A stretch of 64,000 nucleotides of DNA from Octopus vulgaris. Taxonomy: Eukaryota. Shown here in pieces: positions 2,307 through 53,160 of this stretch. Where the stretch lies: the NCBI GenBank assembly GCA_951406725.2, contig OX597822.1, positions 104,656,001 through 104,720,000 of the forward strand, read 5' to 3'. The notes under the pieces are model-generated. The model was not told where the DNA came from. It searched no databases and was given only the letters and a program-made list of their open reading frames with translations. Each line of letters begins with the position of its first letter. Position 1 is the first letter of the stretch. The position numbers were made by a program, and so were the translations under genes.

Positions 2307-3593
2307 CAGGGTGAAGCGGTGAAGACGTTTTTAGAAAAATCACAAAATCATTCATTTTAGCTGCAAGCAAATTCTATTGAGATCAATCTGTTCGCATTGA
2401 ATCATCATTTGTCAAGATCAAGTGTGGGGAACAACATCCATCATGTGGTGTCCGTTTTCATTCATGCATTTCAGAAGGCGTTCTTGGAAGTTGGTCTCCA
2501 CTCTCGCCAGCATTACTCTGTCAATTTGGGCAACTTCCACGCGAATAGCTTCCTTCAAATCGTCCAATGTATGGGGCTTCTGCGCACACACACGTGCCTT
2601 GACAAATCAGGGGACCGAGGGGGCCAAAGAATGTCAGCAAACCTGCAAATGAGGCTGTCACCGAAGAGAAGGTGAAGAACGGCCATTGATGCTCTGGCTG
2701 TGTAGGCTGTCGTCCCATCCTGGTGAAACCACACACATCGACAAGGCATACGTTTTCATCGTAATTCAGTCACAAAGAAGTGGTTTACCATCTCGAAGTA
2801 ACGCTCGGATTTCACACTAACAGAATTTCCATTATTGTCTTCAAAAATGACCAATGGCAACATTTTTTCCAACAGCAGACCAGACGGTCACTTCTGGACT
2901 GTGCAGTAGACTTTCGTGCACTTCTCTAGGATTTTCAAGCGTCCAATAACGACAGTTCTGTTGATTCACCATGCCATAAAGATGAAAATGATCTTCATCA
3001 CTCATTAACAAAATGAAGTTGTCCCTTGTCCCCAAACTGCTTAAGTTAAGCTGCTGCGCATAGTCCCATGGTTTCAACTTTTGCCAAATGATCCATTTGT
3101 ACGGGTGGAAATGCAGGTCTTCATGCAAAATACGCCTTACCAATCGATTAGCCATGCCAAATTCAGTAAAATGCTTCCGAGCAGAACGATTTGGACTCCA
3201 TATCAAAGCTTCTCTGACGCGTTCCACATTTTCCGGGGTCCGTACCGTTAGTGGCGCCCCGATTAGTCTCTTATTCATTAGTGTACCTCGTGTACGATGT
3301 GCATTCATCCAACGTAAGATTGTGTCACGGGAGGAGGGGGAACGGCCTAATTTCGGTGCATGATGAAGTGGCACCGAAACTCACGCAGAGCTGTTGAGAC
3401 AGATTCGTTATTTTTCACGTAACTGTAGGCAAACACGCGATGCTCTAACGTAAACTGCACCATGGCTTCCCCTTAAAATAAAAATAAACGATAAGACACC
3501 ACGGACCAGATGGTACCTATCGTACATATCTCCTTCCGCCTAGGGCACAGAAATAACTATTTCAAAAACATCCGTCCTCTTTGCCTCACTCTG
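2307..3593 (-). mobile_element. Decayed Tc1/mariner transposon, DD41D (rosa/VS-like) type
   Basis: TA-flanked imperfect TIRs (TA-CAGGGTGA... / ...TCACTCTG-TA). ORF pieces carry RRILHEDLHFHPYK, MSDEDHFHLYGMVNQQNCRYW, WFHQDGTTAY and WPPRSPDLS. The PCD motif is deleted; spacing from the second D to the expected third D is 41. Confidence 0.9.
2555..3374 (-). pseudogene. Frameshifted transposase remnant
   Basis: ORFs 2841..3374 and 2555..2749 hold consecutive transposase motifs in different frames. Confidence 0.88.
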
Positions 3594-4071
3594 TATAACA
3601 ACGATCGTATCGTCCTTACCACGTACAGAAGGTTTACAACATTCATAACAACTATCGGTGTCTTTTTAACAAAGTATTTCAGTATCCTACAAGATAAACT
3701 CCTGTAAACAAACAATTTCAATTCATAAGTTGATTACTTTTAATTAACCCTTTCGATACCTATCCGGGGTACTCGTGTTAAAATAGACCTACAAGATATT
3801 CCTCTTTAAACACTTAATTTCCATTCTTTACTGAAATTAATTAATTTTACCCGTCTGAGATCGCTCCTGGTTCTAAATACAAATACAAACTTTCTGTTTT
3901 AAAGTGATCTAAAATAATACGAGGGTAGGTTAAATGTTACCCTCGTGTTAATTTAGCACCCTAATAAACGGTTAGCATCACTTGTCCTGCGGAAGACTGA
4001 ATCATGAATTTCATTTTCGTTGGCGATTCCATCTTCCGCCTTTTGGATTTTGGTTCAAAGGTATAGACAAA

Positions 4072-4305
4072 GGCGGCGAGATGGCAGAATCGTTAGCACG
4101 TCGAGCGAAGTGCGTAGCCGTATTTCGCCTGCCGTTACGTTCTGAGTTCAAATTCCGCCGAGGTCAACTTTACCATTCATCCTTTCGGGGTCGATAAATT
4201 AAGTACCAGTTACGCACTGGGGTCGATGTAATCGACTTAATCCGTTTGTCTGTCTTTGTTTGTCCCCTCTGTGTTTAGCCCCCTGTGGGTAGTAAAGAAA
4301 TAGGT
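4072..4305 (+). mobile_element. tRNA-derived SINE family A
   Basis: Head GGCGGCGAGxTGGCAGAA...GAGTTCAAATTCC; central CTTTCATCCTTTCGGGGTCGATAAATTAAGTACCAG (resembles the Meta-SINE domain); many copies in the window. Confidence 0.88.
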
Positions 4306-4309
4306 ATAG

Positions 4310-6690: not shown

Positions 6691-7565
6691 AGGGAGATAT
6701 GACAAACAATACAGATTAAAGAAAAAGATATTTATTTCAGAGGTCCTGACTTCTAGACGGGTTTATCTAACGAGATATGGAGTATCTACTCTACTCACAG
6801 TGAGGTAGTCTATCATCCGACGCCAGATACCAACAACACCTGGCATGAGAAGCTAGGTACTTTCATGGTGGCGAGATTTCCTTCATCGCTTAAGAAGCAT
6901 TCCAACTCAAATTCATTTATTATTGTTTCATTGATTTGTTTGTTTCTGTTTTTAGAATCTGTTTTGAGGAAATCTGGTTAAACTGTCCAACGATTAGAAT
7001 AGCACTCAATCAGCAAACACAGTAAAGATTATGTCATAATAAAAATCACAAGTTTTGTGAAATAGAACTACCCGAGGTTTTGTAGCTGAAGCGCAATTCT
7101 ATTTCGTCATTTTTCAAGCAGAGAACGAGACTGTTTGTCCGTTACTTTTAGTTACCATAATAAGAGTCACTCAGCTACTCTTTTTCGGCTTTAATCTGGA
7201 AACTTAAGGACGAAGACATCAAATGGAAAATCCTTTCCACAAACTATCCTTATATTAACGTGTGAAAAAGATGTTCAATATGTTCTGTTGAAAAACTATG
7301 TCTCATGAAGAACTTACGAGCCTCCAACGACTACGTAAATTCTAGAAACGGCATTCTCCCTCTATGTCTGTATTTTGAGAAATACATATTAAAGAAATTT
7401 AAAACTAGGCCATCGGAGATATCGCAAACTATTAGTATCTTGTTTAGGTTACATAGACATTTATTTATTGTAATGTTCCTTATCTCGTCTGTGTTCTTTT
7501 TGTTATGAGCATTCCCTGTCCAAACGCTATCTGCTTGATAAACTACGGACAAACGGTCTTGTTCT

Positions 7566-7847
7566 CAGTTTTATATTTAAGAGATGAGGAATTATTTACA
7601 TTATTTACATTATTTACATTCGACGGATATTTGTCCTCATCTTGTTTGTTGTTAACACAGCGTTTCGGCTGGTATACCCTCCAGCCTTCTTCAGGTGTCT
7701 TGGGGGAAATTTCGAACCTGGGTTCTCATTCCTAAGGTATGCTTCGATGTTATTATTATTATTATTATTATAGGGCATATGGCGTAGTGGTTAAGAGCGC
7801 GGGCTACTAACCCCAATATTCCGAGTTCGATTCCAAGCAGTGACCTG
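7566..7847 (-). mobile_element. tRNA-head/hammerhead element, copy 1 (head inverted relative to tail)
   Basis: Hammerhead-like motif on the minus strand at 7654-7699; tRNA-like head on the plus strand at 7773-7847; TGTTCTCAGTT repeated at 7560-7570 and 7861-7871. Confidence 0.8.
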
Positions 7848-8562
7848 AGCAATAAGGTACTGTTCTCAGTTCGAAAAATGGCCCAAAAATTTAATGTTTG
7901 GGCGACGAAACTCTGAGTATCTGTATTTATGTTTGGGCCCTATTCCATGGATTTAGTAAATTTATTAATGACAAACACTTTGTTACGCAATCATTTTATG
8001 ACTTCGTAAAGAAGTTAAGCAAACTCTGATCTGAAGTGAATATTTCTCAATAACGTACAAGCAAACTACATACATATATACATGCATACATAAATGCATA
8101 CATGTCTACATCCACCACCGTCCATAAAAACATACAGCAATATATATGTGTGTGTATGTATGTATGTATGTATGCATGCATGTGCAGGTAACGATAAATA
8201 GTCTAGTGTGTAATAGATATTGAATAGAGTCTCGTTTCTTTCCGCTCATGATATATTCAGAAGCCAGGTAGTTCAATAGGTTTGCTCAGTAATACACACA
8301 TCCATTTGATTGTCCCTCTCTCACAGATACACACAGTCACACACACACACACAGTCTCATACACACAATCACACAGACACAGAATCACGCACGCACACAG
8401 TCACACACATAGACATACAGACACACACACAGATACACATTATACATATATATGATTTGTCGCTCCTATGTATATATATGTACAAAGACATCATTATTTG
8501 TGCGTGCATGTATATATATATATATACATATAAAAATAATGGCGTGTCTTTGTACATATACA

Positions 8563-11811: not shown

Positions 11812-12046
11812 TACCTATTTCTTTACTACCCACAAGGGACTAAACATAGAGGGGACAAACAAGGACAGACAAACGGATTAAGTCGATTAAATCGACCCCA
11901 GTGCGTAACTGGTACTTTATTTATCGACCCCGGAAGGATGAAAGGCAAAGTCGACCTCGGCGGAATTTGAACTGAGAACGTAACGACAGACGAAATGCGG
12001 CTACGCATTTCGCCCGGCGTGCTAACGTTTATGCCAACTCGCCGCC
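11812..12046 (-). mobile_element. SINE family A
   Basis: Reverse complement of 4072-4305; TTATATGTA target-site duplication. Confidence 0.9.
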
Positions 12047-12319
12047 TTATATGTATCCCCATACACATACATACACTTACATACATACATATTGTGGAAT
12101 GTTTTCAAAATCTGAATGCTATTGACAGTCATTGTCCAAGTTTTCACCTGCATGGACTGTCAATAGCATGAAAATGCCCTGACAGAGCGGGATCTTTATA
12201 CGGTTGCTAATCGAAGTGCTGGCCTAGATATTGTTCATTCTTCTGAACACTACTGCAATACGCACGCTTGATTGTAGAGCTGGCATCTGCTTCAATACCC
12301 CAGTCTGTTACTATAATGA

Positions 12320-17797: not shown

Positions 17798-18682
17798 CAG
17801 ATATTTCGGGTTCTCCCTTTGGTTCGTGTATAATGTTATTTTTGTCAAATGTGTACTCTCAAAGATAAATATACATATCTAAAGATTTTATAAACTGAAT
17901 AGGTAGCAAGATGTTCCATTATCGGGTAAACAACCCCGATCTTAAGACACATTCTAAGGATTTTATGAACCTATTTCCGAGAAGGAATTGTATGATTCGC
18001 TCCCTTCAGTGTACGTTAAAAAAATTAAGATTTGTGATAATCGTCCTTTTACTTATTGGGGTCTACATTGTGTACTTATTAGGGCCTACATTTATATGAC
18101 AGAAAACGTATGATATGAGGGTGATTCGGTGAATTTTCCATGAAAGTCGAGAGGCCACGTAGAGGCAGTAACGTCATAAATATATTAAAATCCTCTTGAC
18201 TGGAAAGTTGCAGGCGATAAACGAACGCCCTATACCAAACACATCTCTTTAATTGAAAAATATAGAATCCAATGCTATAGATCTTCTGATGGGGCCTCCC
18301 ATCAACGCAAGCACCCCTAATTGTTCGATCAAGTGCAAAACTTGATTATTGAATTAGTATGTGAAGTGGTTGAATATACCCAAGGCTCTTATACCCTGAA
18401 AGTAATTCTCAACTAATTTCAATGTGATATAAGTGTGATAAGGTACAGTACAGCCGACAGTCTTCTTTGCAGTTTCTCCTCAACTGCAATTCATCGAGGC
18501 TATGAGAAATGCAGTTATCTAACATGCCAAGCAGTAATATCGAACCCAGGATCTTGTGATTGAGAAGCAAAGGTCTTAACTACTCAGAAATGCTTTTCTC
18601 CAGACAGATCCCATACAACCCGATTAGATACCAAGTGATCTTGATTACAATTAAATTGGCAACACAAAACAAGTTCAAAATT

Positions 18683-18889
18683 CAGTTCTATATTTAAGAG
18701 ATGAGGAATTATGTATATTATTTACATTATTTACATTCGACGGATATTTATCTGAGGAATAAAAACCCAGGTTCGAAATTTCCCCAACATACCTGAAAAA
18801 AGCTGGAGGGTATATCAGCCGAAACGCTGTGTTAACAACAAACAAGATAAGGACAAATATCCGTCGAATGTAAATAATGTAAATAAAGT
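18683..18889 (+). mobile_element. Hammerhead element, copy 2 (headless, 5' inverted end)
   Basis: 18683-18752 is the reverse complement of the 3' end plus an extension; degenerate hammerhead at 18788-18833; 12-bp TSD AAGTTCAAAATT (18671-18682, 18890-18901). Confidence 0.82.
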
Positions 18890-19469
18890 AAGTTCAAAAT
18901 TGTTCAAACTTCCACCACAAATTGTAGAATTTTCAAGTTTTATGCCTTATGTCCCTTGTGATCAATCATTAGCCACAGAACTATAATTTTTAGGGGTGGG
19001 CTTTTGTCGGTACCATCAAACCCAATACTTGACTGGTACTCTATTCGCTCGCTTCCTGGTGGATGAAGAGCCAGACCGACATCTTGAATTTAGAAAGTAG
19101 AGAGACGGAACATAATGCGAAGAATTTCCCCGACTCTTTTGCGATTCTGCCAGCTCGCAATTCGCTTTGATTTGGGTACAACGCCAGCAATTTTGAGGGA
19201 AGCGGTTTTATTGGACATCGTAGTCTCCAGTACTTGACTGGTACTTTATCTTATCAACCCTGGATGGATGAAATTTGAAGTTGATCTCGGCTGGATTTGA
19301 ATTCAGACTATAGCAATCCGGAATAAATATGGCAAAACATTTTTTTCAGACGTTCGATGGATTTTGTCATCTCACTGACATCCATCAAACGAATTCTGGT
19401 TTATATTATAAAAGTTTTTTTTTCTCCATTTGTCAAAAACAATGCACATATGAACTATACTAAGTGATA

Positions 19470-19990: not shown

Positions 19991-21719
19991 TATGCTTTCT
20001 CGTTAACAACGTTAACTTAAATAATGTTTTAAATGTGAAAGCATTGCTCACTGGTGTTAAGATGATTGGAAATTCACCAATCTTTCTCACAGAAAACACT
20101 TGATTTCTTTGAAATGATCGATATGAATATTTATTGTTGTGGAATGACCATAATTTACGACGCAGCCATTGTGAACGAAGCAATCTATTTAGCATCGGAA
20201 ACCATAAAGTTTATTGCAGAAAGTAAATTTATTAGTTCGTTTTTAAACATGTATAACATTTTAAAACTGCTGAAATTATGTAAGAGATTTACAATACAGT
20301 AGCATATAAAGCTTCGAACTAAGCTGAATAATATACGGCACCTAGTCCCGATCTATTTTCTTGTCATGTGTTCAAATGGTGTTGAGGTTAAATTTACTTT
20401 CAGTCTTTTCAGAGTTGATTTTAAAAAATAACCTGTCAGCGGCTAGCGGTGATATAATTGACAACGCTATATCTTTCCACTAACTTTGAAGCCTTTTGCT
20501 TAAAAATTTACATTGGTTTCAAATCTTGACACGATGCCAGCAATTTCGGGGAGAGGGTACGTCGATTATATCAACCCCAATACTCAAATGGTACTTATTT
20601 TACTGACTCTGAAAGGTTATAAGGCAAAGTCAACATCGGCGATTTTTGAACACCGAATATAAAGACGGATGTAAAGTTGATGAGTATTTTTCCCAGCGTG
20701 CAAACAATTCTGCTACCTTATTCTCAATATTGATGTTAAGAACCAGAAGGAAATAGAGGAGAGCTGCCTTTCCTTCTCGCCAATGTGAACTAGTCTACGT
20801 GGAGACAAGTGACTCTTGTTTCGTCATATCTTTCTTATTATCTTTCTACTTTTTTTTATTTAACACAACCATTAGGCTTTCAAGTGTCCGAAGTTTCGCT
20901 CTCATTACCATCCAGTATGTGCAAGGTTAAAAAATGTAGTAGTTACGTTATTGTCTTCGGTCTCAGTTTAGTCCCAGATGGATAACATGTTTTCTTGCTT
21001 TGACTATATCGTCTTTTGTATATCAGTAGTTACCACAGTTACGATGAGATCTTCTTACAAAACTGAGGCGTTGAAATTTAACAAAGATTTGGCTGTGATT
21101 TCTGGTAGTTGGTGCTACTACTTTGACACTTCGTTGTTGTTGGTGCTTAATTTATGGTTATCTCCACTCCAATGGCTAATAGAAGGCCTCTCATTCATCA
21201 GGTTCCCATCTTTTCCTCCCTCTTTGCGTATCTAGGAAAACAATATTCCGCATAACCCATCATTTTCTACATGGGAAAGTATAATTTGGGGATGATTTAG
21301 CATTGATATACGCTATACAAATTGATCACATATAAGCTTCTTCATTAGCCCGTAATATACAAAAATAATGTTGTTGACAATTCTTAGTTTTCAAATAAAA
21401 TCTTCATAGATTATGGTGTAACTGTAGCCAGTATCATATTCAGTAGAATCATATACTTCAATAAGCATAATAACCAGAGTCATGAGGGCCGTTGTCATAG
21501 AAAACAGGTTAGGACCATTAAGAGATGAGGGAGAGTGATTATGTACATTATTTACATAATATCCACACGGGCATATGGCGTAGTTGTTAAGAGCGCTGGC
21601 TACTAACACCAAGATTCCGAGTTCGATTCCAGGCAGTGACCTGGATAATAATAATAATAATTATAATAATAATAATAATGATGATGATAATAATAATAAT
21701 AATAGCAATGATGTTGATG

Positions 21720-21788
<69 letters not shown>

Positions 21789-21790
21789 GC

Positions 21791-21847
<57 letters not shown>

Positions 21848-21894
21848 TCGAAAAGTACCTTAGAAATGAGAACCCAGATTCGAAATTTCCCCAG

Positions 21895-21940
21895 GACACC
21901 TGATGATAGTTGGAGGGTGTATCAGCCGAAACGTTGTGTT
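21895..21940 (+). ncRNA. Minimal type-I hammerhead ribozyme motif
   Basis: gacac-CTGATGA-[stem II]-GAAA-CGTT-gtgtt; loopless palindromic stem III (ACGT); GUU cleavage triplet. Confidence 0.75.
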
Positions 21941-21989
21941 AACAACAAACAAGATGAGGACAAATAACCCAGATTCGAAATTTCCCCAG

Positions 21990-22035
21990 GACACCTGATG
22001 ATAGTTGGAGGGTGTATCAGCCGAAACGTTGTGTT
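21990..22035 (+). ncRNA. Minimal type-I hammerhead ribozyme motif (tandem duplicate)
   Basis: Identical to 21895-21940. Confidence 0.75.
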
Positions 22036-22323
22036 AACAACAAACAAGATGAGGACAAATATCCGTCAAATGTAAATAATGTAAATAATATAGGCTGGGT
22101 CCATGTTACATCACTATTTAAGATGATCGGTATTTACTTCAATAAGATTTATAGCATTTGTTTATTCATATTATTATCGCTATAGACAGCCAATTAGTAG
22201 AATCATTAGAGCGGTAGATAAATTAGTTTCTGGTACTCGTTTAGGTTGTCCCCTCTCTAAGTTCCAATTCTGGTAAGATAAATTGTACCTTTCATCCTTT
22301 CGAGGTTGATATACATAGTATCC

Positions 22324-24220: not shown

Positions 24221-24857
24221 CTCTGGACCCAATTCTATTATTATGAATTTGAAATGGGTACTTGATTCATTGTGAATCTTTCATGAGGTAATTATACAGG
24301 CCGTGTACGCCACCCATATGGATGCGTTGCAGTTATTGTCTTGATAGAGCTTGGTGAATCTGACCGTTGATCTTCTAGGAGTCCTCCACTCAGCATCATT
24401 TTAAGAAGCACCGTTGACTCAGTTGAGCTTTATTGCTACTTCCTCTCAATCCGCCATGCTGTATTCCCCTGTATTCACCGTATCAATAGCAGGGTGGCTG
24501 AACGCGTGCTGCGTCTTGCCAAAGGGCAGCGCATAACAACGCAGAGCACGGTTTTCACTCTGTGAGGTATTTTCAAGATATCCACATACCCAAACATAAA
24601 ATAATTAAATTTAACTTTTACGTAATTTCGTATACAAAACTACTAAAGCAAAATGATGAAATGCATACTAATTTTCAAAAGAAATTGATTTATTAGCTTA
24701 AAATAAAATATATACAAATTTCTCATTTGCATATTGCAATAAATATGCTAGTATTTTCTAAATTTTATCACCCTAATCTCATTCTAATCCATAGGAAACC
24801 TGTCTCTGCTATGCAAAATTACATTTCAATAGAACATATATATTCCTGTATTTCCCA

Positions 24858-25071
24858 GAAGGGGCTAATCACAGAGAGGATAAACAAGGACAGACAAAGG
24901 GATTAAGTCGATTATATCGATCCCAGTGCATAACTGGTACTGATTTAATCGACACCGAAAGGATGAAAGACAAAGTCGACCTCGGCGGAATTTGAATTCA
25001 GAACGTAGCGGCAGACGAAATACCGCTAAGCATTTCGCCCGGTGTGCTAACGTTTCTGCCAGCTCGCCGCC
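24858..25071 (-). mobile_element. SINE family A
   Basis: Reverse complement of the consensus. Confidence 0.88.
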
Positions 25072-25140
25072 TTTCATTAGAACATACAGTTTTCATAAAG
25101 TTATAAGGTACATTCATGTTGGACTTCTTATGTTAACTTT

Positions 25141-39347: not shown

Positions 39348-39575
39348 GGCGGCGAGCTGGCAGAACAGTTAGCACGCCGGGCGAAATACGTAACTGTATT
39401 TCGTCTGCCGCTACGTTCTGAGTTCAAATTCCGCCGAGGTCGACTTTGCTTTTCATCCTTTCGGGGTCGATAAATTAAGTACCAGTTACGCACTGGAGTC
39501 GATGTAATCGACTTAATCCGTTTGTCTGTCCTTGTTTGTCCCCTCTATGTTTAGCCGCTTGTGGGTTATAAAAAA
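39348..39575 (+). mobile_element. SINE family A
   Basis: Consensus match. Confidence 0.9.
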
Positions 39576-52610: not shown

Positions 52611-52983
52611 AAAAAAAAATAATAGAAAATCGAACTTACAAATTTCCTCATAAGCAAGAGACCATATTATTTTGTTTACTTTCTTTTTCATATGAATCGA
52701 CCCTCGTCTGCGTGTGTATAGATCATGGTGTACGTATGCGCGTAGGCACATGTGGGTACATACATGCATACATACATATATACATACATACATACATACA
52801 TAGGTAAATACGTACATAGCTATGCGACCGTGTGTGTGTATTTGCGTGTGTTTGTTTATTTGTGTGTGTGTTTGTGTGTGTGTGTGTGCCGTGATGGATT
52901 CGTGGGTTTCGCTTATTCCCGACCTGATTTCTCAATTTCAGTGGAGTATAAATACCTGCAATTAATACAGTTCTAAATTAATA

Positions 52984-53160
52984 CAGTTCTATATTTAAGA
53001 GATGAGGAAGTATGTACATTATTTACATTATTTACATTTGACGGATATTGTCCTCAAGACACTTGATGAATGCTGGACGGTATATCAGCCGAAACGTTGT
53101 GTTAACAACAAGCAAGATGAGGACACATGCCCGACAAATGTAAATAATGAAAATAATGAA
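52984..53160 (+). mobile_element. Hammerhead element, copy 4 (headless, 5' inverted end)
   Basis: Inverted end plus extension at 52984-53056; hammerhead-like gacac-TTGATGA...GAAA-CGTT-gtgtt at 53058-53103. Confidence 0.8.

Follow-up and report, generated by a model that had tools for sequence, protein, structure and literature searches.

The window analysed here is a whole stretch of 64 kb of Octopus vulgaris DNA. Its positions 18671-18901 hold two oppositely oriented pieces of one repeat element, enclosed by an identical 12-mer, AAGTTCAAAATT. A search of both strands of the window found no further occurrence of this 12-mer, which bears out the perfect 12-bp target-site duplication (TSD) described in the initial annotation. 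The left piece is the reverse complement of the 3' end of the element, including a short extension (the tail), which is 32 nt long when the last repeat unit is the starting point of the count. The features of the locus are as follows.

18671-18682, plus strand: left TSD, 12 bp, identical to 18890-18901 (the sole two occurrences in the window)
18683-18752, minus strand: inverted, 5'-truncated arm with its tail-bearing end at the distal site, 94% identical to the copy at 7566 over 70 nt
18683-18714, minus strand: tail, 32 nt, from alignment with the parent 5' ends L299 and L304
18749-18889, plus strand: forward, 5'-truncated arm with a tailless end in 9-nt repeats, overlapping the inverted arm by ~4 nt
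18786-18833, plus strand: putative minimal type I hammerhead motif, decayed, with core CTGA at 18793 and GAAAC at 18821
18890-18901, plus strand: right TSD, 12 bp, identical to 18671-18682

A 28-mer from the extension matches at 18683 (0 mismatches), 52984 (1 mismatch), and 7566 (1 mismatch), and in none of 100 shuffles. Including a fourth copy at 7566-7855, the other copies in the window consist of the following arms, all placed by alignment.

7566-7760, minus strand: long arm of the fourth copy, with tail, whole body, and AAT tract (also by the 28-mer match)
7771-7855, plus strand: opposite arm of the fourth copy, tRNA-like segment only
21518-21560, minus strand: short inverted arm with a partial tail
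21569-22092, plus strand: forward arm with tRNA-like segment, AAT tract, body, and tailless end
52960-53056, minus strand: inverted arm with tail, extended by 5 nt of the parent ORF continuation and with a 16-nt piece of the end duplicated
53044-53160, plus strand: forward tailless arm

As had been annotated, the copies at 18683 and 52984 open with the reverse complement of the 3' end plus the extension, the tail at 21518 is partial (the distal 10 nt are absent and 6 nt are inserted), and the forward ends of these three copies, at ~18889, 22090, and 53157, lack the extension. The fourth copy has a TSD of 16 bp with two mismatches (7555-7570 and 7856-7871). The best candidate for a TSD at 21518 is 18 bp with five mismatches, which is not convincing, and no convincing TSD was found at 52984. 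Within the forward arm at 21569-22092, an A-box-like motif is located at 21576 and a B-box-like motif at 21619, and ~95 nt of the body are tandemly duplicated at 21871-22064, resulting in two consecutive hammerhead motifs.

The pLTR (pseudo-LTR, as this unit is called below) has the predicted features of a minimal type I hammerhead. The copy at 7566 is predicted to fold into the hammerhead core motifs with stems I and II (z -1.73). The motif at 18786-18833, in which the conserved G of CUGANGA is an A, does not fold in this way (z -0.22). The predicted structure has a long helix II and a palindromic helix III, as in the motifs described in the available text of PMC4209133; an Rfam hammerhead search gave no match. 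For the 7566 copy, folding also predicts a 9-bp stem whose 3' side is in the tail.

Two further features were observed in the same window. A second dispersed repeat of ~235 nt is present in four copies with 85-92% identity (4070-4306, 11812-12048, 24836-25074, and 39348-39575), and the minus strand at 2841-3380 contains a 179-aa open frame that by eye resembles a fragment of a Tc1/mariner transposase.

A protein-coding parent with a tRNA-like head

Several copies of the element share sequence upstream of the tRNA-like head, and this led to the parent element. The conserved upstream sequence codes for the C-terminal part of a PLE protein, and longer copies contain reverse transcriptase (PF00078, E 2.4e-10 in L272). 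The head and body follow the end of the ORF in most of the loci L262-L290, and the body and tail continue into the ORF in eight of nine inspected 5' ends, so that the tail lies within the first ~52 ORF codons. The pLTR is present at both ends of the ORF and overlaps its start. Since the ORF-bearing parent carries the head, AAT tract, and body at both ends, the short element is its pLTR. The initial annotation had taken the inverted ends as independent support for a SINE mobilised by Penelope, a claim that falls here: everything, head as well as body, belongs to the pLTR of a PLE with a coding ORF, and the tail forms the start of that ORF, so no separate SINE is implied. A SINE-like subset may nevertheless be re-mobilised from short copies.

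The parent copies examined bear stops and frameshifts. An intact homologue of 847 aa (P0004) is 55% identical in the reverse transcriptase region and 53% over 320 aa at the C-terminus, and its N-terminus matches the body peptide (44% over 48 aa). The reverse transcriptase region of the parent is 38% identical to Anolis P0050 and 31% to another PLE of the same genome; these pairwise identities point to membership in the Penelope/Poseidon clade. Two C-terminal stretches (L281 and L265) gave no match to PF01541 (GIY-YIG), and we infer a putative C-terminal endonuclease from position and homology.

Other routes to the parent were unproductive. No shared continuation past the tail was seen by eye among the first 100 of 301 pattern matches, and no long ORF was found by peptide search among 150 scored candidates. 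The GIY-YIG families and a Naiad-like family of the same genome were rejected as the parent on comparison, the latter showing no similarity to the element. The Naiad-like family (L192-L220) has many open frames of ~900 aa, some in tandem. Another PLE family of this genome (L171:2245-4587 and at least 15 further places) has many open 781-aa frames of reverse transcriptase plus GIY-YIG with an upstream ORF, and looks recently active. Contig C31 contains nine near-identical, rearranged parent copies with common flanks (L267, L274-L276, L278, L283, L286, L287, and L289), which were probably amplified inside a larger repeat. The only protein match to the body peptide is P0001, a predicted Octopus sinensis protein in which the N-terminus of the element ORF is fused to cysteine-rich sequence resembling a membrane protein; the fusion is an exonisation or an annotation artefact.

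The head has A and B boxes of the tRNA-derived type. Among 30 genomic tRNAs compared, the best match is to tRNA-Arg, with 50 of 74 positions identical (z 7.2 versus shuffles) and tRNA-Thr tied. Neither ARAGORN, which called no tRNA in the window, nor Rfam identified the head as a tRNA. Among 80 head-bearing segments, 51 end between -20 and +10, 21 end within the head, and 8 extend further; this sharp 5' edge suggests a transcript start, although an imperfect palindrome is also located there. T4 runs are absent from ~2.6 kb of the sense strand and average 0.07 per 840 nt over 29 copies, versus 2, 6, and 2 in another PLE. Departure from null models is weak (P 0.043 for a synonymous shuffle of the first 503 codons, 0.067 and 0.24 for Markov orders 1 and 2), and a test on three single copies gave P 0.11-0.74. 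On these sequence features, we hypothesise that the element may be transcribed by polymerase III. Unstranded RNA reads from a related organism were rejected as evidence on promoter or strand, their loose ends at the same two positions representing genomic copies in read-through transcripts.

One tail per two-arm insertion

Copies elsewhere in the genome were sampled with an exact, tail-neutral pattern in the element core, which biases the sample towards well-preserved copies. The first 91 of its 361 matches were fetched and gave 90 loci, all on C1-C4. A peptide search of the genome produced 37243 first-look candidates, and 20 arbitrary 10-kb stretches contained two insertions; the family therefore comprises tens of thousands of arms.

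Two head-to-head arms are present in 55 of the 90 loci, and 54 of these insertions have exactly one tail (binomial 1.6e-15); one has two tails and none lacks a tail. Pooling the neutral sample with loci picked for an inverted layout or a tail and with three window stretches gives 101 pairs, of which 95 have one tail, six have two, and none is tailless at both ends. Of these six, two continue into the parent ORF rather than ending an insertion, one is located in an AAT tract, two are unexplained, and L236, with two tails and a 10-bp TSD, is a real exception. The rule of one tail per insertion is shown for two-arm insertions only; the other 35 loci have a single arm, tailed in 17 and tailless in 18. 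Five of these (L033, L057, L069, L078, and L090) have a short partner of the opposite type and an 8-12-bp TSD, L120 has a possible short second tail, and no partner could be assigned in the remaining 29.

TSD scores of at least 8 were obtained for 39 of 54 pairs versus 5 of 300 mismatched pairs. TSD length ranges from 9 to 20 bp in the 46 pairs whose tail end is clean and whose TSD is good, and is 12 bp in 19 of them. The inner breakpoints are scattered over about 1000 nt, in agreement with the variable inversion breakpoints expected in the initial annotation. Inverted ends and a TSD are also what a MITE with terminal inverted repeats would produce, and the variable breakpoints argue that the element is not one; since the two ends are unequal, TSD length varies, and the parent encodes reverse transcriptase, this origin is rejected.

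In the 50 clean two-arm pairs of the neutral sample, the tail arm extends further 5' than its partner in 18, less far in 28, and equally far in 4. The tail is thus also common on longer ("forward") arms, and the fourth copy in the window has it on the long arm. The tie between the extension and the inverted 5' piece, on which the initial annotation relied, is contradicted by these arms. Its reading of the inverted end, tail, and TSD as a Penelope footprint is upheld, and two primers are the likely cause; the expectation that the extension would be scarce on forward ends largely fails.

Insertion ends, junctions, and a model of integration

The bases past the tail are biased to TAT.A in 50 ends, a bias seen before the parent was found, and the parent goes on with TATTA. 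Where bases past the tail are not duplicated, they match the ORF continuation in 17 of 27 cases, and in 13 of 23 once four loci whose selection pattern itself contained these bases are set aside (~5 expected by simple arithmetic); in the other 10 of the 23 the extra bases differ from the ORF. Many of the templates therefore carried the ORF. Short duplications at the tail end (window 52960-52983, L033, and L309) point to slippage at the distal start site or to repeated initiation there.

At tail ends, target and template share at least two bases in 14 of 32 cases (10% expected). Homology at tailless ends averages 2.3 nt versus 0.45 nt (34 of 39 ends), these means being somewhat inflated by a TSD search that prefers long matches. 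Tailless ends are located at variable positions in the 9-nt repeats, within the loop of the predicted 9-bp stem (z -1.41, weak). At both types of end, the 3' end of the target strand abuts antisense sequence, and each end therefore behaves as a primer.

The same asymmetry would result if both ends primed at the distal site and an endonuclease or repair then removed one tail, along the lines of the endonuclease-mediated resolution to which PLE tails are ascribed in the available text of PMC8557442. Microhomology-mediated repair could also imitate homology of the priming type. However, the excess repeat homology at tailless ends and their variable positions are as expected for priming, and a second internal start site was observed in vitro (PMC11167929, available text). 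Removal of a tail is accordingly an explanation that we rate as quite improbable.

At the junctions between arms, homology averages 1.8 nt versus 0.65 nt in the 34 clean junctions of 95, and extra bases are present in 6; 55 of the 95 were skipped as microsatellite, palindromic, or gapped. Sister arms have a subfamily variant in common in 54 of 60 pairs (57% expected; three pairs with other bases were left out), and their divergence is 0.062 per site versus 0.065 for random arms. More repeat sequence than in the sister arm was found at 5 of 34 tailless ends. The six variant disagreements, the near-random divergence, and the longer tailless repeats argue against strict copying from a single RNA. 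Between sister arms, the numbers of repeat units are not significantly correlated (rho 0.26, p 0.14).

Junction microhomology, the imperfect palindrome at the pLTR start, and variants common to both arms are also compatible with a fold-back, in which a single cDNA or antisense RNA snaps back and copies itself, a form of the self-priming idea in the available text of PMC3846280. However, a copy cannot acquire a tail that is missing in its template, which means that no partner should extend further 5' than the tail arm. In 28 of 50 pairs, and likewise at 18683, the tail arm is the shorter one. Fold-back could apply to the remaining pairs, and as an account of the family it is very improbable. 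The near-absolute one-tail rule, the end homologies, and the arm lengths exclude its simple form and provide a direct prediction for the in vitro system.

We consider it probable that 18671-18901 is a head-to-head double insertion of the pLTR of a decayed Penelope/Poseidon-type retrotransposon, with one tailed and one tailless end inside the 12-bp duplication, likely formed when reverse transcription started from each end of a staggered cut, at two distinct internal positions of the element RNA. The endonuclease would make a staggered cut with 3' overhangs of ~12 nt. One target end would prime just past the tail, and the other ~30 nt upstream, in the 9-nt repeats within the loop of the predicted stem. 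Both cDNAs would extend towards the 5' end of the RNA and terminate at positions that vary or at the tRNA-like segment, before being joined head-to-head through microhomology. This scheme fits the anole Poseidon protein, a predicted dimer that in vitro extends both target strands and has two internal start sites flanking the tail (PMC11167929, available text). The in vitro start site showed no difference between strands, and the protein required RNA up to ORF position 172, beyond its start sites (PMC11167929, same text).

With start sites positioned where the ORF begins, short copies could arise directly from the parent transcript by priming in its upstream pLTR, and no separate SINE master would be needed. 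The alternative is a separate tRNA-headed SINE that is transcribed from short genomic copies and uses Penelope enzymes. Consistent with such a SINE, short copies are far more numerous than those with an ORF (first-look candidates: 37243, 3041, and 389), 51 of the 59 arms that reach the start of the head end there, the head resembles tRNAs, and the 10 of 23 extra-base cases noted above differ from the ORF. However, the head, AAT tract, and body adjoin the ORF without a break at both ends of the parent, the tail-end bases match an ORF continuation that short copies lack, and the RNA requirement of the anole protein extends into the ORF (PMC11167929, available text). A separate SINE is therefore unlikely. 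Extending the two-site priming reading, we tentatively raise the possibility that the pLTR of an autonomous Penelope acquired a polymerase III promoter of tRNA origin at its start, and that a strictly asymmetric integration complex uses one RNA at both cut ends, with two start sites 30 nt from each other. By priming close to the 5' end of its transcript, the element might then have produced palindromic inserts that look like SINEs in the tens of thousands, without any SINE master gene.

Comparison with known elements

In twin priming of L1, two target ends prime on the RNA, resulting in an inversion joined by microhomology, with non-overlapping arms and a variable second site. The 7566 copy likewise has non-overlapping arms. 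Unlike in L1, octopus arms usually span the same 3' region, with starts ~30 nt apart. Octopus tRNA-derived SINEs were reportedly described by Ohshima and Okada in 1994. The present family may be one of these under a SINE name, or may otherwise already be named.

Naiad/Chlamys PLEs also form inverted 5'-truncated copies with a 30-40-bp tail at either end, often at one only, and differ in their N-terminal endonuclease and in being without canonical hammerheads (PMC8557442, available text). As described in the available text of PMC3846280, Pen2a_Av of Adineta vaga has an inverted pLTR, a 31-bp tail on one pLTR that lies in the first ORF codons, TSDs (8-10 bp), and a palindrome at the pLTR 5' end. 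Unlike Pen2a_Av, the octopus element is present mostly as pLTR-only copies, its TSDs are centred on 12 bp, its pLTR starts with a tRNA-like segment, and the asymmetry has been counted over 101 pairs. The inverted pLTR, the one-sided tail, the TSD, and the minimal hammerhead (PMC4209133, available text) are thus already published PLE features. Neither a tRNA-headed PLE pLTR nor paired tail-end counts were found in the available text of the literature covered, including PMC13282606, a retrozyme preprint (10.64898/2026.07.22.740005), PMC10886601, PMC9115989, PMC8967140, and PMC3531059.

In Poseidon_Ac of Anolis carolinensis, the ORF start likewise overlaps a hammerhead motif, the start site is in a stem-loop, two internal start sites bound the tail, and both target strands are extended (PMC11167929, available text). 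No strand difference in start site is reported in that text, nor are the ends of single events paired there, whereas the two ends of octopus insertions are anticorrelated. Tens of thousands of short copies allow the ends of single events to be paired, which bears on how PLEs form their inverted ends and optional tail. The family also illustrates that what would be classed in an annotation as a tRNA SINE can be the end repeat of an element that encodes a protein. Relative to the systems above, the new features of the octopus element are the measured asymmetry of the tail and the tRNA-like segment at the start of the pLTR.
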